A stretch of DNA of 64,000 nt from Anaerolineae bacterium (GTDB taxonomy: Bacteria; Chloroflexota; Anaerolineae; B4-G1; SLSP01), in contig JBNGDO010000001.1 of NCBI GenBank assembly GCA_049975385.1, positions 2,600 to 66,599 of the forward strand, given 5' to 3'. Position numbers and translations under genes: made by a program. The notes below the pieces were generated by a model that searched no databases, was not told the DNA's origin, and was given only the letters and a program-made list of their open reading frames with translations. Every line of letters starts with the position of its first letter. Within the stretch, counting starts at the first letter, position 1. Shown in pieces: positions 14,281 through 58,323 of this stretch.

Positions 14281-14390
14281 TATCAGCGATCAGCGGTCAG
14301 CCGGAACGGTAGGTGTTGGCGCATGGTTCAACCACCAAACCACCAAACCACCAAACCACCAAACCACCAAACCACCTAACCACCGAACTG
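14281..14390. repeat. Two adjacent short tandem repeats in the nagB 5' region: (TCAGCGN)x5 then (ACCACCAA)x5
   Basis: Reads cagcggtcagctatcagcgatcagcggtcagcc followed by caaccaccaaaccaccaaaccaccaaaccaccaaaccacctaaccaccgaac, directly upstream of the nagB RBS aaggagg. Confidence 0.85.
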
Positions 14391-15153: not shown

Positions 15154-15170
15154 TGGTTGAGAGGGCAATT

Positions 15171-15200
15171 CACGTATCACGAGTCACGCATCACGCGAAA
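15171..15200. repeat. Heptanucleotide tandem repeat (CACGNNT x4) in the nagB-nagA spacer
   Basis: Reads cacgtatcacgagtcacgcatcacgcg. If translation were to start at the upstream TTG it would encode YHESRIT. Confidence 0.8.
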
Positions 15201-15213
15201 AGGATGTGTCAAG

Positions 15214-16200
15214 GTGAATTATCGCTCTGGTTTTGTGGATTTGCAGGTCAACGGCTTTCTGGGCGTGGATTTCTCCAGCCCAGACTTGACCGAAGTAGAT
15301 TTCGTCCGCGCGTGCCGGGCGTTGTTGGCGCAGGGGACGGCAGCGTTTTTGCCGACGGTGATCACCAGCTCACTCGATGCCTATGCCCATAATTTGCCGT
15401 TGATGGCAGAGGTGATGGCGCGCGAAGAATTCGCGTGCGAGGAATTCCAGGGCCGCCTATTAGGCTTTCACCTGGAAGGTCCTTTTATCTCACGAGTGCC
15501 GGGTGCGGTAGGCGCACACAATCCGGCCTACGTTCGCGATCCCGATACTGCGCTGCTGGAGCAACTGCTCGGTTGGACAGATGGGCGCGTGCGCTTGCTC
15601 ACACTGGCGGCAGAATTGCCCGGCGCGGATGACCTGGCGCGCTGCGCCGTAGAGCGAGGGATCGCCGTCTCGATCGGACATTCGCTCTACACGACTGACG
15701 ATCTGGACCGGCTGGCGGACGCTGGCGCGACGGCGCTCACGCACTTCGGCAACGGCGTACCAAACGTACTGCCGCGCCACGACAACCCTTTGTGGGCCGG
15801 AGTGGCGCACGACGCGTACACGGCGATGTGCATCACGGATGGGCATCACCTGCCTGCGCCGGTGATCAAGACGGTGGCGCGGGTCAAGGGCGCGGACAAG
15901 TTCATCGTTGTCAGCGACGCGTCGCCGGTGGCGGGATTGCCGCCGGGCCGCTATCATTTTCTGGATAACGACGCGATCCTGGAGCCTTCAGGCCTTTTCC
16001 ATAACCCAGATAAACAGTGCCTCGTGGGCTCTTCAGCAACGATGCGACAGTGTATGGCGCACTTAGCCAGCCTCGGAGAACTTTCCATCGCCGAACTGCA
16101 TCAAGTGAGCGTCACGAACCCCCTAGACCTTATCGGCATTGACTACAATGTTGATGGAACGCCAGAATGCTTGACAAATCACCAAGTCACGCTAGAATGA
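15214..16200 (+). CDS. nagA: N-acetylglucosamine-6-phosphate deacetylase
   Basis: DLQVNGFLGVDF, GFHLEGPFIS and a later HxxNG match the NagA amidohydrolase. The start is most likely GTG 15214, which follows aaaagga. The longer TTG-initiated ORF (15157) only adds repeat-encoded residues. Confidence 0.8.
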   Translation: MNYRSGFVDLQVNGFLGVDFSSPDLTEVDFVRACRALLAQGTAAFLPTVITSSLDAYAHNLPLMAEVMAREEFACEEFQGRLLGFHLEGPFISRVPGAVGAHNPAYVRDPDTALLEQLLGWTDGRVRLLTLAAELPGADDLARCAVERGIAVSIGHSLYTTDDLDRLADAGATALTHFGNGVPNVLPRHDNPLWAGVAHDAYTAMCITDGHHLPAPVIKTVARVKGADKFIVVSDASPVAGLPPGRYHFLDNDAILEPSGLFHNPDKQCLVGSSATMRQCMAHLASLGELSIAELHQVSVTNPLDLIGIDYNVDGTPECLTNHQVTLE

Positions 16201-26339: not shown

Positions 26340-26597
26340 AAATAGCCTAACCCGGATAAACCGGAACTAAGCAGGCCATCGATGCCCGTGTTCTCGCTCA
26401 TTGTGCAAGAATTTAGGTGGTTAGGCCCTGACTTCTTATCCTGAAGGGCACTTTGGTATTTCTTTATAACATTATAACACTGCGATTGCGGTTTGTCAAT
26501 AGGTTTGCCGGGATTTTTGCTGATCTATTTTCAAATGCGCGATTGACTTTGAGCCAAATTGGCGAGAATGGAGACGAAATCATTATCAGGAGGGGGT

Positions 26598-27215
26598 ATG
26601 GACATCTGGCAGGGACAGTGGGTACGTCTGCGCGGCGTGGAGCCGGGCGACGCCGATGTTTTCTTCGCGTGGCGTGACAGTGATATGGGGCGCTTTACGG
26701 ATTTTGTAAAGTTCCCACATTCATTGGAAGCCACCCGCAAGCACTTTGAGAAGATGGCGACGTCGGAAGCAAAGGACGACGCTTTCGATTTCGTCATCGA
26801 GAACGAAGGTGGAGAAGCCGTCGGCATTATCAACTCACATACCTGTGACCGACGGGTGGGGTGCTTTATGTACGGCCTGGCGATTGGCCCGGATTATCGT
26901 CGCAGAGGCTACGCCGCCGAAGCCATCCTCCTGCTGTTGCGCTATTTCTTCGATGAACGCAATTACCAGAAGGTCTCGGCGACAGTCTATTCGAACAATG
27001 AAGCCTCACAGCGCCTCCACGAGCGTCTGGGGTTTACGCTGGAGGGCCGCATCCGCCGCGTGGTCTTTACGCTAGGCCAGCACTTCGATGAGCTCCACTA
27101 CGGGATGACGGTGGAAGAGTTTCGGGCGAATAAGCGAATGAGCGAATGGATGAATCAGCGAATGGATGAATCAGCGAATGAGCGAATAGAAGAATTCCCA
27201 ACCACCAATCGCTGA
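26598..27215 (+). CDS. GNAT family N-acetyltransferase (RimJ/RimL-like) with repeat-encoded C-terminal extension
   Basis: Start at MDIWQGQWVRLR, after aggaggggg. The acetyl-CoA motif is RRRGYAAEAILLLLRYFF. The last ~30 aa (ANKRMSEWMNQRMDESANERIEEF...) are encoded by GCGAATN heptamer repeats. Confidence 0.75.
   Translation: MDIWQGQWVRLRGVEPGDADVFFAWRDSDMGRFTDFVKFPHSLEATRKHFEKMATSEAKDDAFDFVIENEGGEAVGIINSHTCDRRVGCFMYGLAIGPDYRRRGYAAEAILLLLRYFFDERNYQKVSATVYSNNEASQRLHERLGFTLEGRIRRVVFTLGQHFDELHYGMTVEEFRANKRMSEWMNQRMDESANERIEEFPTTNR
27126..27188. repeat. Tandem heptanucleotide repeat (GCGAATN x9) inside the 3' end of the GNAT gene
   Basis: Reads gcgaataagcgaatgagcgaatggatgaatcagcgaatggatgaatcagcgaatgagcgaatag. 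Confidence 0.85.
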
Positions 27216-36487: not shown

Positions 36488-37888
36488 ATGATCAAAGTAG
36501 CAGTTATTGGAGCAGGAAGTCTCACTTTTACACGGCGGTTGATGATGGACATTCTGGCCGTTCCGGAACTGCGCGATACCGAGTTCCGCTTCATGGATAT
36601 CAACCCGACGTATCTGGAGATGGTCACGAACGTTTGTCGGAAAATGATGACGGATGCAGACATCCGCGCCGATAGCGGCGTCCCCACCACAATTGTACCC
36701 ACGCTCGACCAGCGCGAAGCGATTGCGAGCGCGGATTACGTCTTTTGTCTGGCGCGGGTGGGCGGCCTGGAAGCGTTCCGTCACGACATCGAAATCCCGC
36801 TGAAGTACGGCGTGGATCAGTGCGTAGGCGACACGTTGGGGCCGGGCGGCATCTTCTACGCGCTGCGCAGCATCCCCGTGCTGCTCGACATCGCCAAAGA
36901 CATGCGCGAGGTCGCGCCGGGCGCGCTGCTGCTCAACTATTCCAATCCCATGGCGATGAACACCTGGGCCGTGCGTCGCGCGGGCGGTGTGCCGATTGTT
37001 GGATTGTGTCACGGCGTCCACGGCGGACATTACCAGATTGCGCAAGTGCTGGACCTGCCGCAAGACGAAGTGGACTTCATCTGCGCGGGGATCAATCACC
37101 AGACGTGGTACATCCAGGTGACGCACAAGGGCAAGGATATGACGCCCTATCTGCTCGAAGCCTTCGAGAAGCATCCCCGGTATTCGCAGACCGAGAAAGT
37201 GCGCATCGACGTGCTGCGGCGCTTCGGCTACTACTCGACGGAGTCTAACGGCCATTTGAGCGAGTATGTGCCGTGGTATCGCAAGCGGCCTGACGAGATC
37301 AAGGACTGGATCTCGCTGGACAGTTGGATCAACGGCGAAACCGGCGGCTATCTGCGGGAGACGACCGAGAAACGCGAAGAATACGAAGAGCTGTACCCCA
37401 AGTACATGAGCGGCGAAGTGGACATGATCCCCCTCGGTGACCGCAGCAGCGAACACGGATCGTACATCATCGAGTCGCTGGAGACCGGGCGGCTGTATCG
37501 CGGGCACTTCAATGTGGCGAATACGGGCCTCATCACCAATCTGCCCGACGGCTGCACCGTCGAGTTGCCCTGCTACGTGGACGGCAACGGCATCAGCCCG
37601 GCGTGGGTGGGCGATTTGCCGATGGCGTGCGCGGCGACGTGCCGCGTCAGCGTCAATGTGCAGGAGATGGCGGTCGAGGCGGCGTTGACGGGCAACCGCG
37701 AACTGGTCAAGCTTGCCGTGCTCCACGACCCGCTGACCGGCGCCGTCTGCAACCCGCCGGAAGTCTGGGCGATGTGCGACGAAATGTTCGACGCCCTGGC
37801 CCCGTGGCTGCCGCAGTTCAACGGTGAAGGACGCACGTGGCCCGACATCCCACAGCCCAACGGCGGCATCTTGCGATTCCCAAAATAA
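36488..37888 (+). CDS. Glycoside hydrolase family 4 (NAD+/Mn2+-dependent alpha-glucosidase/alpha-galactosidase-like)
   Basis: The Rossmann motif KVAVIGAGS, NYSNP, and the Cys-His metal site (GLCHGV) are GH4 hallmarks. The RBS is aggagg. Confidence 0.8.
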   Translation: MIKVAVIGAGSLTFTRRLMMDILAVPELRDTEFRFMDINPTYLEMVTNVCRKMMTDADIRADSGVPTTIVPTLDQREAIASADYVFCLARVGGLEAFRHDIEIPLKYGVDQCVGDTLGPGGIFYALRSIPVLLDIAKDMREVAPGALLLNYSNPMAMNTWAVRRAGGVPIVGLCHGVHGGHYQIAQVLDLPQDEVDFICAGINHQTWYIQVTHKGKDMTPYLLEAFEKHPRYSQTEKVRIDVLRRFGYYSTESNGHLSEYVPWYRKRPDEIKDWISLDSWINGETGGYLRETTEKREEYEELYPKYMSGEVDMIPLGDRSSEHGSYIIESLETGRLYRGHFNVANTGLITNLPDGCTVELPCYVDGNGISPAWVGDLPMACAATCRVSVNVQEMAVEAALTGNRELVKLAVLHDPLTGAVCNPPEVWAMCDEMFDALAPWLPQFNGEGRTWPDIPQPNGGILRFPK

Positions 37889-37889
37889 A

Positions 37890-37953
37890 GTAGACGGTAG
37901 ACAGTAGACGGTAGACGGGGGGGAGTATCCCTGTCTACCGTCTACTGTTTTCT
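37890..37953 (+). terminator. Terminator hairpin built from GTAGACG heptamer repeats
   Basis: gtagacggtagacagtagacggtagacggggggg pairs with ccctgtctaccgtctactg (19-bp stem, one mismatch) and is followed by TTTTCT. Confidence 0.75.
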
Positions 37954-38040
37954 GTCTACCGGTATGCCGTTTAACTTTCAAAGACGGGTATAACTTCAGT
38001 GCAATCTCTTTGCCCTCCTTGCTATACTGTGAAAGCAGGT

Positions 38041-38108
38041 GGGATCAGGGATTAGGGAGCGGGTTGCAGTTGCTTTCCCAATCCCCAGTCCCTAATTCCC
38101 AGTTACCC
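38041..38108. repeat. Palindromic modular repeat element in the 5' leader of the fused oxidoreductase gene
   Basis: gggatcagggattagggagcggg ... cccaatccccagtccctaattcccagttaccc, downstream of a tatact -10-like box. Confidence 0.8.
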
Positions 38109-38125
38109 TTTCAAGAGGAGCACGT

Positions 38126-41100
38126 ATGGCAGACTATCGTATCAAAGCACACCCGATTCTTTCGGTCCTTTCCGATGATTTCGTCGAATTTACCTGGCAG
38201 GGCGAGCCATTGACGGCGCGGCGCGGGGAGATGATCGCGTCGGCGTTGTTCGCGCACGGCATCCACGTCTTCGGGCATCATCACCACGATAGATCGCCGC
38301 AGGGCATCTTCTGCGCGAACGGGCAATGCTCGCAGTGTCTCGTCATCGCCGACGGGCTGCCGGTGAAGGCGTGTATGACACCGGTGACGACTGGTATGGT
38401 CGTCGAGCCTTTGGAAGGATTGCCTGTGTTGCCGCCAGTGGCGGAGCCACCACCCTCACGTGCCTTGGAGACGGTGGACGCGCCCGTGCTCATCATCGGT
38501 GGGGGACCGGCAGGGATGTCGGCGGCGATCCAGTTGGCGGAGTACGGTGTCCGCGTGTTGCTGGTGGATGACAAGGATCGCCTCGGCGGGAAGCTGGTCT
38601 TGCAGACGCACCGCTTCTTCGGCTCCGTGGACGCCGTCTACGCGGGCACACGCGGCATCGACATCGCCACACGGCTCGAAGAAGACGTCCGCCGCCACGA
38701 CAACATCGAAGTCTGGCTCAACAGCACCGCATTGGCGGTTTTTAGCGACGGCAAAGTGGGGATTCTGCGGGGCGCGGATCATGAATCACGAATCACGAAT
38801 CATGAATCACGGATTACGGATCACGCATCACGCCTCACGCGTCACGAGCCGGAGTATGTTCTGGTTCACCCCGAAATCCTCCTCGTCGCCGCGGGCGCGC
38901 GGGAGAAATCGCTGACGTTCAAGGGGAACACGCTGCCGGGTGTCTATGGCGCGGGGGCGTTCCAGACGTTGGTGAACCGCGATTTGGTGCGGGCTGCCGA
39001 GCGGCTGTTTATCGTCGGTGGTGGGAACGTGGGGTTGATCGCGGGGTATCACGCGCTTCAGGCCGGTATCGAGGTGGTGGGGCTGGTCGAGGCGCTGCCG
39101 GAATGTGGCGGGTACAAGGTCCACCGGGACAAGCTGGCGCGTTTTGGCGTGCCGATTTACACATCGCACACAATTCTGTCTGCCAACGGCGACCCCGCCA
39201 ACGGCGGTAACCATGTGGAATCGGTGACAATTGCCCAGGTCGATGAGCATTTCCAGCCAATCCCTGGCACGGAGCAATCCTTTGCCTGCGACACGGTGCT
39301 CATCGCCGTGGGCCTCGATCCGGTGAACGAGTTTACGCAGAAGGCGCGGGACTTCGGGATGACGGTGTTCGACGCGGGCGACGCTCAGGAGATTGCGGAA
39401 GCCTCGGCGGCGATATTTTCCGGCAAGATTCGCGGGCTGGAGATCGCGCGGGCGCTCGGCGCGACGGAGGACGCCGTCCCCGATGAGTGGCGGCGCACTG
39501 GCGACATCCTCAAGTCGCATCCCGGCGCGGTGATTCCGGAGCGCATTCCCGAACAGGAGGAGGGCGTTTTCCCGGTCTTCCACTGCTCGCAGGAGATTCC
39601 GTGCAATCCCTGCACCTCGGTCTGTCCGCAGCAGTTGATCCACATTGACCCAACCGACATCCGCGGTATCCCTACTTACCTGGGCCTGGAGGCGGAGAAG
39701 GCGTGCCTGGGCTGTGAGCAATGCGTCGCCGTGTGCCCCGGGCTGGCGATCACGTTGGTGGATTACCGCAAGGACGCCGAGATGCCGACCGTGACGTTGG
39801 CCTACGAGTTTCTAGCGAGCCGCATCGCCGTTGGCGACCGGGTGACAGCGCTCGATACGGTGGGCAACGTTCTCGGCGAGGCAGAGGTAACAAGTGTGCG
39901 TGCGATCAAGCGCAACGACCGCACTGTGTTGGTCAAATTGCGCGCGCCGAAGGCGATTGCCAAGCTGATCGCCGGGCTGCGTGTGCAAGACCTGGCGGTC
40001 GGTTCGGCGCTGAGCGACGAAGTTGTGAATCTGGACGACGACGCGGATGCAGACATCCGAATCGTCTGCCGCTGCGAGCGCGTGACGGCGGGCGAAATCC
40101 GCGCGCTGATCCGCAAGGGCTACCGCGACGTCAACGAGATCAAGGCCGTCACGCGCGCCGGGATGGGCGCTTGCGGCGGCAAAACGTGCAGCGCGCTCAT
40201 CCTACGTCTCTTCCGCGAGGAAGGCATCCCCCTCGACGAAGTCACCCCAAACATTCCGCGTCCCCTCTTCGTCGAGGTTCCGCTGGGTGTCTTTGCGGCA
40301 AATCAGCGAATGGGCGAATCAGCGAATAGCGGATTACGAGATACGAATCACGAATCACGAATTACGGATCGCGCATCACGCATCACGCATCAAGGCCCCC
40401 TTACTCCTTACTCCGTACTCCCTACTTCTTCTGATGTGATCATCATCGGCGCCGGAAGTGTGGGCGTGCCGGCGGCGCTGGCGATGACGCGGATAGGGCT
40501 GAAGGTGCGCGTGTTCGACGGGGCGGCGAGCCAGGGACAGGGTTCCAACAAATCGGCGATTGGCGGCGTGCGCGCCACACACTCCGATCCGGCGAAGATT
40601 CGCCTGTGCCTGCGCAGTCTGGAGATTTTCTCGACGTGGGAGGAAACCTACGGCCACAACATCGAGTGGACGACCGGGGGCTACACCTTCGTCGCCTACC
40701 GCGAGCGCGAGGCGCAGACGCTCAAGAATCTGCTCAAGGTCCAGCATACCTACGGCCTCGACATCGACTGGTACGACCGCGATGATTTCCTCCGGATCGT
40801 TCCCGATGTGAACCGCGAGGGTCTCCTCGGCGGGACGTTCTCCCCGCACGACGGGCATTGCTCGCCTTTGCTGGCGGGGCACGCTTTCTACGATGCGGCG
40901 AAAGCAGCGGGCGCGCTCTTCCACTTCGACGAGCCGGTGACGGAGATTCTGGTCGACGACACGATCACAGGCCGGCGCATACGCGGCGTGCGGACGAACC
41001 GGGAAACCTACCTCGCGCCAGTCGTCGTCAACGCTGCCGGGGCGTGGGCGCGGGCCGTCGGGCGATGGGTGAACATGGATCATCCCGTGCAACCTGAGTC

Positions 41101-41587
41101 ACACGAGGCTGGAATCACCGAACCGGTGGCGCATTTCCTCGATCCGATGCTGGTAGACATCCGCCCCGCGCCGGGATCGGCCAACTACTACTTCTTCCAA
41201 TTGCGGGATGGGCAGGTCGTTTTCTGCATCACGCCGCAGCCGAGCATCGCGGGCTTCGATCGACGCGAGACGAGCGTTTTCTTGCCGCAGGTTGCGTCGC
41301 GTATGGTGGATTTGGTCCCGCGTCTGGCGAACCTTCGCGTGCGGCGCACTTGGCGCGGCCTCTACCCGATGACGCCGGACGGCTCGCCGCTCGTCGGTTG
41401 GGCGCGGGAGGTGAGCGGTTATCTGATGGCGATCGGCATGTGCGGGCAGGGCTTCATGCTCGGTCCCGGCCTGGGCGAGCTGCTGGCGCGGATGGTCGCG
41501 CAGGAGGAGCTGTCGCCGGAAGATCGGGAGGTGTTGAAGGTGTTGTGGCCGTACCGGGCGTTCGCGGGGGAGGAGGCGTTGAAGTAG
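38126..41587 (+). CDS. Fused HcnA/HcnB/HcnC-like (opine oxidase / heterotetrameric sarcosine oxidase / PDH1-like) FAD and Fe-S oxidoreductase, 1153 aa
   Basis: Residues 1-95 form a 2Fe-2S domain (CANGQCSQC...C). A pyridine-nucleotide-disulfide oxidoreductase follows (VLIIGGGPAGMSAA ... FIVGGGNVGL). Next come two 4Fe-4S-like motifs (CSQEIPCNPCTSVCP, CLGCEQCVAVCP) and a BFD-like 2Fe-2S (CRCERVT...GMGACGGKTC). After a heptamer-encoded linker lies a DAO-family FAD oxidase (VIIIGAGSVGVPAALAM...). There is no stop codon anywhere in the frame. Confidence 0.75.
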   Translation: MADYRIKAHPILSVLSDDFVEFTWQGEPLTARRGEMIASALFAHGIHVFGHHHHDRSPQGIFCANGQCSQCLVIADGLPVKACMTPVTTGMVVEPLEGLPVLPPVAEPPPSRALETVDAPVLIIGGGPAGMSAAIQLAEYGVRVLLVDDKDRLGGKLVLQTHRFFGSVDAVYAGTRGIDIATRLEEDVRRHDNIEVWLNSTALAVFSDGKVGILRGADHESRITNHESRITDHASRLTRHEPEYVLVHPEILLVAAGAREKSLTFKGNTLPGVYGAGAFQTLVNRDLVRAAERLFIVGGGNVGLIAGYHALQAGIEVVGLVEALPECGGYKVHRDKLARFGVPIYTSHTILSANGDPANGGNHVESVTIAQVDEHFQPIPGTEQSFACDTVLIAVGLDPVNEFTQKARDFGMTVFDAGDAQEIAEASAAIFSGKIRGLEIARALGATEDAVPDEWRRTGDILKSHPGAVIPERIPEQEEGVFPVFHCSQEIPCNPCTSVCPQQLIHIDPTDIRGIPTYLGLEAEKACLGCEQCVAVCPGLAITLVDYRKDAEMPTVTLAYEFLASRIAVGDRVTALDTVGNVLGEAEVTSVRAIKRNDRTVLVKLRAPKAIAKLIAGLRVQDLAVGSALSDEVVNLDDDADADIRIVCRCERVTAGEIRALIRKGYRDVNEIKAVTRAGMGACGGKTCSALILRLFREEGIPLDEVTPNIPRPLFVEVPLGVFAANQRMGESANSGLRDTNHESRITDRASRITHQGPLTPYSVLPTSSDVIIIGAGSVGVPAALAMTRIGLKVRVFDGAASQGQGSNKSAIGGVRATHSDPAKIRLCLRSLEIFSTWEETYGHNIEWTTGGYTFVAYREREAQTLKNLLKVQHTYGLDIDWYDRDDFLRIVPDVNREGLLGGTFSPHDGHCSPLLAGHAFYDAAKAAGALFHFDEPVTEILVDDTITGRRIRGVRTNRETYLAPVVVNAAGAWARAVGRWVNMDHPVQPESHEAGITEPVAHFLDPMLVDIRPAPGSANYYFFQLRDGQVVFCITPQPSIAGFDRRETSVFLPQVASRMVDLVPRLANLRVRRTWRGLYPMTPDGSPLVGWAREVSGYLMAIGMCGQGFMLGPGLGELLARMVAQEELSPEDREVLKVLWPYRAFAGEEALK
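38777..38846 (+). repeat. In-frame heptanucleotide repeat inside the FAD/NAD domain, encoding DHESRITNHESRITDHASRLTRHE
   Basis: Reads gatcatgaatcacgaatcacgaatcatgaatcacggattacggatcacgcatcacgcctcacgcgtcacg. The reading frame avoids the TGA present in other frames. Confidence 0.85.
40301..40430 (+). repeat. In-frame heptanucleotide repeats (GCGAATN, GAATCAC, CATCACG, CTTACTC families) forming the linker between the HcnB-like and HcnC-like parts
   Basis: Reads aatcagcgaatgggcgaatcagcgaatagcggattacgagatacgaatcacgaatcacgaattacggatcgcgcatcacgcatcacgcatcaagg...ccttactccttactccgtactccctacttcttct. It encodes NQRMGESANSGLRDTNHESRITDRASRITHQGPLTPYSVLPTSS. Confidence 0.85.
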
Positions 41588-41591
41588 GCGA

Positions 41592-41646
41592 GGATGCAGG
41601 ATGCAGGATGCAAGAGTGTGATTGGATTGCCGGGTGGGGATTGAAT
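41592..41646. repeat. Heptamer repeat (GGATGCA x3) plus GATTGGA-type modules directly after the oxidoreductase stop
   Basis: Reads ggatgcaggatgcaggatgcaag gtgtgattggattgccgggtggggattgaatc. Confidence 0.75.
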
Positions 41647-41729
41647 CTTCACCAGTTAATGATATAATGAATTAAAGAATTTATGTGGAATTACAGAATT
41701 CTGTAAAGCCTGGTGAAAGGAGTTGTCTG

Positions 41730-42002
41730 GTGACTGTCAATATCAAGAATCAAGAGGTGGAGAGTTTATTGGACTCTGTCGTTCAATTGACCGGAGAAAC
41801 CAAAACCGCTGCAATCCGTCAAGCCCTGGCTGAACGGTTGGAGCGTCTCTCTTTGATGCGTGTGGTTCCCCAGGATGCGGCTCGGCTAGAGGCGTTTCTG
41901 CAAGACGAAATCTGGGCTAATATCCCAAAGCATCTGCTTGGAACGTCTTTGACTAAAGCGGAAGAAGAGGCTATTCTGGGCTATGGAGAGCATGGAATAT
42001 GA
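41730..42002 (+). CDS. vapB: VapB-like antitoxin (ribbon-helix-helix/Arc-type) of a VapBC pair
   Basis: The likely start is GTG 41730, preceded by aaaggag (the ORF track starts at ATG 41685). The fragment TKTAAIRQALAERLERL is typical of small antitoxins. Its stop overlaps the vapC start (ATGA at 41999..42002). Confidence 0.6.
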   Translation: MTVNIKNQEVESLLDSVVQLTGETKTAAIRQALAERLERLSLMRVVPQDAARLEAFLQDEIWANIPKHLLGTSLTKAEEEAILGYGEHGI

Positions 42003-42385
42003 TCGTTGATACTTCAGCGATTGCGGCGATCTTTTTTAAGGAATCCGGATATGAGGATCTGCTAGAGAAGCTCGGTCGTGCTCACGAGGTAGGGATCGGT
42101 GCGCCGACATTGGTCGAATGTGGCATTGTCCTGAGTGCGCGGTTGGGGCGCGATGCACGTGGAATGTTGTCTCGTTTCTTGGAAGAGACTCATGTGTTTA
42201 TTGTGCCCTTTGTTGATGTGCATTACAGTACGGCTGTAACGGCGTGGCAGAAATTTGGCAAGGGAAGACATCCTGCTGCATTGAATTTCGGCGATTGTTT
42301 GACCTATGCTGTTGCCAAGCTGGCGGGAGGCCCCCTGTTGTGTGTAGGCGATGACTTTTCGCAAACCGATCTGGAATTAGCGTAA
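41999..42385 (+). CDS. vapC: PIN-domain toxin VapC
   Basis: MIVDTSAIAAIF (first acidic D), NFGDCLTYAVAK and GDDFSQTDL carry the conserved PIN acidic residues. Length is 128 aa. Confidence 0.8.
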   Translation: MIVDTSAIAAIFFKESGYEDLLEKLGRAHEVGIGAPTLVECGIVLSARLGRDARGMLSRFLEETHVFIVPFVDVHYSTAVTAWQKFGKGRHPAALNFGDCLTYAVAKLAGGPLLCVGDDFSQTDLELA

Positions 42386-57224: not shown

Positions 57225-57225
57225 G

Positions 57226-57320
57226 GCAGGATGCAAGAATCAGCGAATCAGCGAATGACTGAATCGGCGGATCACGGATCACGAATCCCCAATTACCAGT
57301 TACCGATTACCAATCATAGA
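57226..57320. repeat. Composite heptamer repeats (GGATGCA, GCGAATC, GGATCAC, then CCAATTACCAGTTACCGATTACC module) between the isomerase gene and uxuA
   Basis: Reads gaggcaggatgcaagaatcagcgaatcagcgaatgactgaatcggcggatcacggatcacgaatccccaattaccagttaccgattaccaatc. Confidence 0.85.
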
Positions 57321-57333
57321 AAAAGGACAAAAA

Positions 57334-58323
57334 ATGATTAAGATTGCTGAAGTATTACCCCCTTATCCGACACCGTTGTGGCGATTGGTCAAGCAGTGCG
57401 GCGTGAATTACGTCGTCGGATCGATGGATTTCCGGCGCGGCCTTAACGTGGATAAAGAATACCTGCCGTGGAGCTATATGTCGCTGGTGCGGATGAAGAC
57501 CGCTTACGAAGATGGTGGCTTCCAATTGGATGTGATCGAAAGCCGTCCACCGCTCAACAAGGCCAAGCTGGGTCTGCCAGGGCGCGACGAGGAAATCCAG
57601 CACGCCATCGATATGATCCGCAACATGGGCGCGCTCGGCATCCCGGTGTGGTGCTACGAGTGGATGCCCGTCTTCAACTGGATGCGCACCTCGACCACGG
57701 CGCCAGCGCGGGGTGGGGCGCTGGCGACCGCCTACGATCACGACCTGATGCGCAATGCGCCGCTCACCGAGTACGGCGTCGTCACCGAGGCGCAGTTGTG
57801 GGAGAACCTGGAATACTTCCTCAAAGCGGTCGTGCCGGAAGCGGAAAAGGCCGGCGTCAAGCTGGCGATGCACCCCGACGATCCCCCGCTCTCTCCGATC
57901 CGTGGATTGGGGCGCATTATGCGCAGCATCGAAAACTACCAGCGGCTGCTCGACCTCGTCCCCAGTCCGGTCAACGGCATCGCGCTGTGCATGGGCAATT
58001 TCACGCTGATGACCGACGACTTGCCCGACGTTATCCGTCATTTCGGCAAGCAGGACAAAATCTTCTTCGTCCACTTCCGCGACGTGCGCGGCACGCCGGA
58101 GAAGTTCGTCGAGACTTTCCACGACGATGGGAAGACCGACATGCTGGCCTGTATGCAGGCCTACCGCGACGTCGGCTACGAGGGCGTCTGCCGTCCCGAT
58201 CACGTCCCCACGATGGAAGGCGACAGCAACGACCGCCCATCATATTCATCGGTGGGTCGGCTCTTTGCCATCGGCTATCTCAAGGGCTTGCGTGAAGCTG
58301 TGTATGGTGGGCAGTCCGGCTAA
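57334..58323 (+). CDS. uxuA: D-mannonate dehydratase
   Basis: [12 protein letters not shown] (E. coli YNFMPVLDWTRT), LAMHPDDPP (MAVHPDDPP), [14 protein letters not shown] and [17 protein letters not shown] match UxuA blocks. Confidence 0.75.

Follow-up and report, generated by a model that had tools for sequence, protein, structure and literature searches.

Heptamer repeat arrays read in frame as a putative inter-domain linker and loop in a fused iron-sulfur flavoenzyme gene of an Anaerolineae bacterium

In this work, we analyzed a 64,000-nt stretch of DNA (hereafter, the window) from an uncultured Anaerolineae bacterium (Chloroflexota), corresponding to positions 2,600-66,599 of the forward strand of contig JBNGDO010000001.1 in assembly GCA_049975385.1, focusing on an intact open reading frame (ORF) at positions 38126-41587 which begins with ATG, contains zero internal stops and encodes 1153 amino acids (aa). 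This ORF joins an N-terminal [2Fe-2S] module (A), a Rossmann oxidoreductase module (B) and a DAO module (C), and harbors two arrays of short tandem repeats, one within the Rossmann domain and the other between modules B and C. All coordinates are positions within the window and residues are numbered on the 1153-aa ORF, whose identical public counterpart (P0001) bears the label 'MAG: FAD-dependent oxidoreductase [Anaerolineae bacterium]'. The gene displays the following features:

38115-38120, + strand: Shine-Dalgarno (SD)-like GAGGAG, separated by 5 nt from the ATG, as seen in the sequence itself
38126-41587, + strand: fused ORF with the A, B and C modules, 1153 aa, 100% identity to P0001
38183-38407, + strand: A module, Fer2_4 [2Fe-2S] domain, residues 20-94 (Pfam E 1.5e-22), with C63, C68, C71 and C83 conserved
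38486-39349, + strand: B module, FAD/NAD(P) Rossmann domain, Pyr_redox_2 at residues 121-408 (Pfam E 2.1e-27), with matches to SoxA and PH1363
38778-38847, + strand: loop array of about 10 AATCACG/CATCACG heptamers (84% matches), encoding residues 218-241
39584-39745, + strand: two 4Fe-4S-type Cys motifs (C487/C493/C496/C500 and C527/C530/C533/C537), matched by Fer4_7 and Fer4_9, in invariant Cys columns
40061-40216, + strand: BFD-like [2Fe-2S] domain, Fer2_BFD at residues 646-697, overlapping a SO_alpha_A3 match (E 5.1e-12 and 4.5e-05)
40298-40432, + strand: B-C linker, A725-S769, 45 aa, in three blocks of AATCAGCG-type 8-mers, AATCACG/CATCACG 7-mers and CCTTACT 7-mers
40433-41494, + strand: C module, DAO-type FAD dehydrogenase, residues 770-1123 (Pfam E 5e-68; 1Y56_B E 2.5e-50)
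40436-40438, + strand: in-frame GTG, V771 of DVIIIGAGS, without SD-like sequence upstream
S769/D770 junction: spanned by the predicted tryptic peptide ITHQGPLTPYSVLPTSSDVIIIGAGSVGVPAALAMTR

The DAO profile was covered in full (1-353 of 353 positions in the same Pfam match), and a Fer4 match was also found at residues 492-540. Further, the Cys ligands of all four predicted clusters were invariant or nearly so among 86 homologues; in the Fe-S domains, C83, C648, C650, C683 and C688 were invariant, and C63, C68 and C71 nearly invariant.

Regarding the arrays, Tandem Repeats Finder reported ATCACGA x10 at 38778-38847, as well as AATCAGCG, CGAATCA and CCTTACT arrays at 40297-40430, beginning 652 nt (loop) and 2171 nt (linker) inside the ORF. 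Both are imperfect, with 76-84% matches and at most about 3 consecutive identical units, and read in frame they encode the peptides RGADHESRITNHESRITDHASRLTRHEPE (loop) and ANQRMGESANSGLRDTNHESRITDRASRITHQGPLTPYSVLPTSS (linker); two TGA-bearing ATCATGA units lie 21 nt apart, which leaves both TGAs out of frame. A previous reading made from the sequence alone (hereafter, the sequence-only reading) had described heptamer repeats read in frame within this gene, and the ORF, its domains, the arrays, the quoted peptides and the GTG at VIIIGAGS were all confirmed. The in-ORF arrays displayed no significant RNA structure (z +1.25 for the linker, and -0.05), unlike the intergenic inverted arrays described below, and RNA structure was rejected as their function.

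The position of the linker was established by comparison with orthologous loci. We classified 87 loci (duplicates included), 80 from a scan of species-representative genomes and 7 fetched earlier; AB and C were separate genes in 71 of these, only AB was present in 8, and the remaining 8 were fused (L001-L004, L008, L009, L012 and L045). Unfused orthologues consist of an AB protein of 696-709 aa and a DAO protein of 385-389 aa, whose genes either lie 56 nt apart or overlap at ATGA. In split loci, the AB C-terminus reads ...PLGVFAG followed by 2-12 residues and a stop, the C N-terminus reads M(x)2-5-YDVIIIGAGS, and the spacers, where no ATGA overlap occurs, are short and carry GGAGG or AGGAG 5-8 nt before the ATG. 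The window linker (A725-S769, 40298-40432) falls exactly between PLGVFA and DVIIIGAGS, in agreement with the earlier proposal that the block at 40301-40430 sits at the point where one gene would have stopped and the next begun. By sequence comparison, the repeat block stands in place of the ancestral AB tail, stop, spacer, SD, ATG and first C residues. The sequence-only reading further held that repeats weld all three modules; this is the case for the B-C junction, but not for the A-B junction, which bears no array in the window and is fused in hundreds of homologues of about 700 aa, as well as in the solved SoxA and PH1363 chains.

Assemblies from NCBI, JGI, ENA and Logan yielded more than 20 different fused orthologues of 1084-1163 aa, with identities of 50-90% and conserved surrounding gene order. 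Five distinct fused linker DNAs measured 135, 111, 120, 141 and 153 nt, and eight repeat-bearing loop DNAs ranged from 36 to 120 nt; all these lengths are multiples of 3 and none is divisible by 7 or 21, therefore unit size does not by itself keep the arrays in frame. For the spacers of split relatives, length modulo 3 was 2, 0, 0, 2, 1 and 2. When stop codons were pooled across arrays, the coding frame contained 0, the other two forward frames 7 and 20, and the three reverse-strand frames 25, 31 and 24. In the window alone, one open frame is not significant, since frame +1 is also open in both arrays, and the significance derives from the orthologue comparison. The number of fused orthologues, the uniform multiples of three and the complete lack of in-frame stops agree with the sequence-only reading in pointing to a genuine and conserved gene fusion with a flexible linker; they also indicate that in linker and loop it is the reading frame alone, not the peptide, that selection has kept.

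The array-encoded peptides were also examined in predicted structures from two AlphaFold2 runs, the first with 26 sequences (mean predicted local distance difference test score, pLDDT, of 61.0) and the second with 86 sequences (mean pLDDT 68.7, predicted template modeling score 0.58). In the second run, residues 218-240 and 726-766 displayed pLDDT <50 (block means 25-33; 25-29 for the linker) with no secondary structure, and the first run agreed, with low confidence at 219-239 and 711-766. Strands 211-215 and 243-254 border the loop, with a mean pLDDT of 83 at residues 241-250, and the DAO beta-alpha-beta motif past the linker reached 85-89. Placement of the loop on solved SoxA or PH1363 by sequence alignment was unsuccessful, this region being too divergent, and AlphaFold secondary structure and pLDDT were used instead. 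According to these models, the 38778 insertion maps to the turn of a beta-hairpin and is predicted to be disordered, and the linker would be flexible. The sequence-only reading had located this insertion within the Rossmann domain and raised the question of a surface loop; the hairpin-turn position and predicted disorder support an inserted loop, putatively at the surface. In outgroups, the loop site holds just a 4-5-residue turn (REGKE, RGGDT, KQGE).

The arrays change much faster than the gene that carries them. Compared with its ten closest orthologues, the window protein was 85-93% identical outside arrays and 18-53% identical in array columns; overall, the figures were 78-93% and 14-53%. 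Unit types also differ among relatives (AATCACG, AATCAGCG, CCTTACT, CCAAAAT, CAATCTC, GCAGGAG), and the loop and linker sites of one genome tend to share them; the AGGATGC unit type, present just downstream of the window gene, was found within the linkers of orthologues P0002 and P0011. Proteins P0003 and P0279 are 99.6% identical outside the loop and carry unrelated loop arrays of 90 and 108 nt, both in frame. In their 6-kb loci (L092 and L093), about a dozen point changes were observed, and the loop array plus about 20 nt of its 5' flank were wholly replaced, which from the sequences points to replacement and not to slippage. The public L092 contig still begins with ~80 nt of sequencing adapter (…TCGTCGGCAGCGTCAGATGTGTATAAGAGACAG). 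Similarly, linker arrays differ between P0015 and P0287 (about 95% identical elsewhere), and P0016 and P0294 (about 96.5% identical elsewhere) differ in the loop too, the P0294 linker being 8 aa longer.

Whole-unit change was observed in two contigs from different JGI samples, L094 (4925-4952) and L090 (3890-3920), in which 10,644 aligned columns were identical except for one CCCACAA unit, present in 4 versus 3 copies; the L094 gene is intact (1155 aa), and in the short L090 allele it is split into ORFs of 294 and 878 aa. From sequence, this one-unit difference bears the signature of slipped-strand mutation. Among truncated homologues considered as frameshift alleles, L090 was the only informative one, as L088 contains a 100-N gap, and L089 has frameshifts away from the arrays that are probably assembly errors. 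The L094 lineage also carries a third in-ORF array pair (TATTCCG x3 and ACGCAAT x4, L094 4515-4568) at the A-B junction, on the boundary of the 2Fe-2S and Rossmann domains. Family-wide, arrays occupy both inter-module junctions and one hairpin turn, that is, sites tolerating insertions. In the split relative L010, the in-ORF loop array takes the form of an inverted pair, (GCGAATG)x5 and then (AATTCGC)x3, with the potential to form a hairpin within the ORF.

The distribution of fused and split genes was assessed in a neighbor-joining tree of 91 AB+C sequences with 200 bootstraps. Fused P0024 and P0025 nest in a split Cloacimonadota group (100% bootstrap), and fused P0023 groups with split L082 and L079 (98.5%). 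Within the wider Anaerolineae group of the window (about 70% identity), fused and split forms are interleaved on nodes with just 75-88% support, split L046 pairing with fused P0019, and fused P0015 and P0016 with split L010, L043, L005 and L011. In these topologies, the B-C fusion arose at least three times independently (bootstrap 98-100%), mostly with non-repeat linkers; P0121, P0122, P0126 and P0137, representatives of clusters at 50% identity, are fused through non-repeat linkers of 33-56 aa. Repeats are therefore not needed for the fusion, and the earlier proposal that repeat expansion created it possibly applies, but only to the B-C fusion in the clade of the window.

The P0019 fusion is very recent, since its cluster includes AB-only proteins of 699-703 aa that are 93-94% identical to P0019. 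Its linker (L091, 5089-5193) reads ...RRET-M-PTNNY, corresponding to the old weak SD and ATG, and its split sister L046 starts with MPNPTY. This linker also bears a 10-bp inverted repeat.

In 43 of the 71 split loci (duplicates included), AB and C share one reading frame and only one stop codon separates them (in 2 of these loci, two stops in a row), and the ATG comes from zero to about 10 codons past the stop, usually within three. These same-frame loci (L010-L061, L085 and L086) belong to Asgard archaea, Cloacimonadota, Elusimicrobia, Marinimicrobia, Spirochaetota and others, and their proportion exceeds the chance expectation of one-third, although the loci are phylogenetically non-independent. 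With same-frame neighbors one stop apart, B-C fusion is mechanically easy. Selenocysteine or read-through at these single stops was rejected, as TAA, TAG and TGA are mixed and each is then followed by an ordinary ATG.

Based on the observed architecture, junction position, frame conservation and array turnover, we consider it likely that the gene represents a real single-chain form of a usually two-gene enzyme, in which hypermutable arrays are translated in frame as a disordered tether of about 45 residues and a disordered loop, with purifying selection acting on the frame. We infer from the sequence comparisons that the product would be expressed as one polypeptide. Several points weigh against this reading or against the order of events that it may imply. 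The argument for a single-polypeptide product is drawn from conservation of the sequence, the overall quality of the AlphaFold models is mediocre (mean pLDDT 61.0 and 68.7), and the P0019 linker keeps a fossil ATG and a weak SD, making dual products conceivable in that lineage. As for event order, the arrays may have created this fusion or may have colonized an older plain linker; the sister fused proteins P0018 and P0020 have Pro-rich non-repeat linkers, the nearest split relatives L010, L011 and L043 have array-filled spacers, and the tree nodes bearing on whether arrays or fusion came first reach just 70-80% bootstrap.

Under the single-chain reading, the proposed course of events would start from an ancestral AB gene encoding a [2Fe-2S] domain, an FAD/NAD(P) Rossmann domain, two 4Fe-4S motifs and a BFD [2Fe-2S] domain, next to a C gene encoding a DAO-type FAD amine/amino-acid dehydrogenase. 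In the Anaerolineae lineage, intergenic spacers are filled with hypermutable 7/8-nt tandem arrays; the B-C junction lacks stop, SD and ATG, and its array-filled segment would be translated in frame as the disordered tether, with a second array tolerated as a disordered loop at the beta-hairpin turn of the FAD domain. The arrays alter through whole-unit slippage and wholesale replacement, even among near-identical strains, and purifying selection would retain stop-free in-frame alleles, a one-unit slip breaking the gene.

The arrays of the gene form part of a lineage-wide feature. The window contains 20 period-7 arrays versus 1.15 expected from Markov simulations, 5 of period 14 versus 0.1, and 5 of period 8 versus 1.25, and period-16 arrays are also enriched. 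Array density was 12-33 bp/kb in the window and its closest relatives, 3-7 bp/kb in the nearer split relatives L005 and L011, and 0-2 bp/kb in loci of other Anaerolineae, other phyla and archaea. Almost all other window arrays are intergenic or reach just a few codons into the end of a gene, the linker and loop arrays being exceptional, and many intergenic ones are inverted pairs that fold into strong hairpins. Around the fused gene, the following arrays were found:

37885-37965: inverted arrays (GTAGACG)x4 and (GTCTACC)x4, forming a near-perfect hairpin of about 30 bp directly after the GH4 stop (37888), minimum free energy -55.1 kcal/mol, z -10.5
38030-38110, + strand: upstream intergenic inverted arrays GGGATYA/TCCCWAT, forming a hairpin, z -2.73
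41591-41612, + strand: (AGGATGC)x3 array, starting 4 nt past the stop codon

The first of these looks like a terminator or RNA-stabilizing element built from repeat units; the hairpin in the AB-C spacer of L010 reached z -2.3. The spacer at 57225-57335 is one-armed and contains AGGATGC, AATCAGCG-type 8-mers, GATCACG/AATCACG 7-mers and C-rich CCAATTA-type 7-mers up to the next SD/ATG, in a block order matching that of the in-ORF linker. The purest array of the window (96% matches) is (AACCACCA)x7.4 at 14330-14388, an intergenic array about 25 nt ahead of a gene start that has a strong AAGGAGG. In the GNAT acetyltransferase ORF at 26559-27215, the last ~30 residues (ANKRMSEWMNQRMDESANERIEE...) derive from an 8-mer array at 27126-27187, which implies that arrays at gene ends extend C-terminal tails.

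Comparable arrays have been described in other bacteria. Heptamer TAACTGA arrays occur between genes in Beggiatoaceae, cyanobacteria and some Bacteroidetes and are rare in coding DNA (PMC4679880), and the same rarity applies to GGGAATC arrays in Xanthomonas and to GGGGAYT/STRR in Nostoc (PMC4692102). Like these, the arrays of the window are lineage-specific, over-represented, mostly intergenic and scarce in coding DNA, often arranged as inverted pairs, and variable in length and sequence between close relatives; unlike these, they belong to another phylum, combine many unit types, and are read through as the linker and loop of an enzyme. In a literature search, no report tying heptamer repeats to Chloroflexi or Anaerolineae was found.

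Several alternative explanations were weighed. The best-surviving one considers the in-ORF arrays as an adaptive contingency (phase-variation) switch, in which slips of one or two units toggle between the full ABC enzyme and truncated products, and we regard it as unlikely. With a unit length of 7, gain or loss of any one unit alters the frame, turnover in the arrays greatly exceeds that in their flanks, and a single CCCACAA unit separates the intact L094 gene from the frameshifted L090 gene. There is also a precedent in the NeuO poly-psi domain of E. coli K1, where the heptanucleotide variable number tandem repeat (VNTR) AAGACTC is translated as RLKTQDS heptads, and where a long perfect 5'-end array of 2-93 copies underlies on/off switching that was shown experimentally (PMC3046976). 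As in NeuO, the units studied here are coding heptanucleotides, three of which yield a 7-residue repeat in a disordered segment, and a one-unit slip results in frameshift and truncation. However, our arrays are short, degenerate, of mixed units and placed in an internal loop and an inter-domain linker. The in-frame heptamer translation of the VNTR is found here and its long perfect fast-slipping array is not, and any switching would be hypothetical. The imperfection of the window arrays, with about 3 identical units in a row at most, also implies a lower slippage rate. Moreover, a single array-borne out-of-frame allele was detected among about 25 lineages, in a related lineage and not in the genome of the window, and P0301/P0302, from the same cluster, carry a frameshift outside any array, which makes sporadic decay or assembly error just as good an explanation of the array-borne allele. 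The usefulness of an off state would, in addition, have to be assumed.

A broader version holds that the arrays constitute an active genome-wide hypermutable system, which turns spacers into linkers that create or reshape fusions and adds a reversible frameshift switch to a metabolic redox gene; we give it slightly less credit than the switch alone. If true, it would mean phase variation in a free-living environmental bacterium, and array replacement by a dedicated mechanism, the latter being implied by the same unit repertoire at different sites of one genome.

According to another alternative, two proteins are still made, with DAO translation starting internally at GTG 40436 or through unrecognized signals for termination and reinitiation, as the sequence-only reading had also contemplated; we consider this very improbable. 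The GTG lies one residue into the conserved DVIIIGAGS, close to the start of separate DAO subunits, which begin 4-7 residues earlier, and the fused P0019 lineage retains the fossil ATG mentioned above. Yet no in-frame stop occurs throughout 38126-41587, and the 21 nt before the GTG are pyrimidine-rich, without SD or ATG, while split orthologues have GGAGG/AGGAG plus ATG. Individual junctions are cited here because a census of SD sequences for window genes (17 of 43) was unreliable, longest-ORF starts having been used. Furthermore, each fused orthologue is one continuous protein, and an independently started DAO would free the linker frame to drift, whereas all linker DNAs inspected keep the frame; both termination-reinitiation and internal initiation as the sole source of DAO are therefore unlikely.

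Finally, that the continuous ORF is an artefact of a metagenome-assembled genome, with collapsed repeats joining two genes, or a decaying pseudogene, is hardly credible: the arrays are repetitive, the L088 assembly has its 100-N gap from just past the gene ATG to just beyond the loop-array site, and contig L089 carries frameshifts elsewhere, but the identical P0001 is deposited at NCBI, independent assemblies in four data sources contain more than 20 different fused orthologues with arrays that all differ and are all in frame, arrays of 70-135 nt are below typical read length, and catalytic and cluster-binding residues are conserved.

In relation to known enzymes, sequence matches in the PDB included 1Y56_B (E 2.5e-50, residues 765-1127), SoxA (E 1.4e-21) and 1Y56_A, and the top four chains retrieved by Foldseek with the model were 1vrq_A (E 3.4e-25), 2gag_A, 1y56_A and 1y56_B. 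No NCBIfam model reached its curated cut-off for the fused protein, soxA (TIGR01372) scoring 161 bits against a cut-off of 1164 and soxB (TIGR01373) 89.9 bits against 529. Given these scores and the missing folate-binding SoxA C-terminal half and gamma and delta subunits, a Sox orthologue was rejected. By sequence, the fused protein belongs to the broad PDH1/Sox/Hcn/Oox kind without being an orthologue of any named enzyme: it has the DAO domain, the second Rossmann domain and the Fe-S relay (HcnA-like and BFD-like [2Fe-2S]) of this kind, although in a single ORF instead of two or three separate polypeptides.

The L-proline dehydrogenase PDH1 of Pyrococcus horikoshii (PDB 1Y56, alpha4beta4) is, through 1Y56_B, the best solved relative of the DAO module; its alpha subunit PH1363 matches the N-terminal part of the fused protein in sequence and fold, and both share the logic of a two-flavin amine dehydrogenase. 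Unlike PDH1, which consists of two polypeptides, the fused protein adds two 4Fe-4S motifs and a BFD domain. For the heterotetrameric sarcosine oxidase SoxABGD (PDB 2GAG, 1VRQ/1X31), SoxA aligns to residues 16-425 and SoxB to the DAO module, and the SO_alpha_A3 match is shared; in contrast, the scores fall far below both Sox cut-offs, and no gamma or delta subunits were found. The hydrogen cyanide synthase HcnABC and the opine oxidase OoxAB comprise a 2Fe-2S protein, a Pyr_redox_2/BFD subunit and a DAO subunit in two or three polypeptides. By general description, these have the three module kinds in common with the window protein, which differs from them in being one chain. By analogy with these families, the substrate C-N bond would be oxidized at the DAO flavin, and electrons would then reach the second flavin/NAD(P) site by way of the Fe-S clusters.

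The neighborhood of the gene is conserved among relatives and includes a DNA methylase, a Methyltransf_33 protein, a GH4 hydrolase, a VapBC-like pair and several peptidases; it points to no pathway, with no hint of cyanogenesis or opine use. The toxin-antitoxin pair, VapB-like (PSK_trans_fac) plus a PIN-domain protein, lies directly downstream at 41685-42385, and its synteny is kept in L001 and L003.

The peptide HESRIT, which the sequence-only reading treated as an inserted peptide repeat, turned out to be merely (AATCACG)n coding. As 7 and 3 share no common factor, (AATCACG)n read in any frame yields a cyclic permutation of NHESRIT, and its recurrence in the loop, the linker and the 5' end of the ORF at 15157-16200 follows from this coding. 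A query of NHESRIT x6 against 5.8 billion proteins retrieved only six hypothetical ORFs of 43-71 aa, and a functional HESRIT repeat or family was rejected on this basis. The reported HESRIT in a NagA leader was located, since YHESRIT is read at the 5' end of ORF 15157-16200 (array 15170-15196); the ORF begins with LRGQFTYHESRIT and carries a NagA-like GFVDLQVNGFLGVDF motif, but it had no Pfam match at E<=1e-5, and the NagA label derives from the motif alone. The true start of this ORF probably lies downstream of the array. For annotation purposes, low-complexity HESRIT-like stretches in these genomes should be regarded as translated repeat DNA, not as domains.

The enzyme kind, the fused architecture and the heptamer arrays are each already known or present in databases. 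The novelty lies in their combination, namely hypermutable, lineage-specific 7/8-nt arrays read through as a tether and a loop, of which the frame alone is conserved, with strain-level turnover and one frameshifting slip. Heptamer-repeat-rich genomes are now extended to Anaerolineae and, for enzymology, expression may be easier with a single chain than with the several subunits in which this Fe-S flavoenzyme is otherwise made. In the likely case that the single-chain reading is correct, the gene would illustrate clearly how simple-sequence DNA from between genes can come to serve in nature as a linker and a surface loop of a protein, in a flavoenzyme family whose two-gene junction is evolutionarily labile and repeatedly fused.

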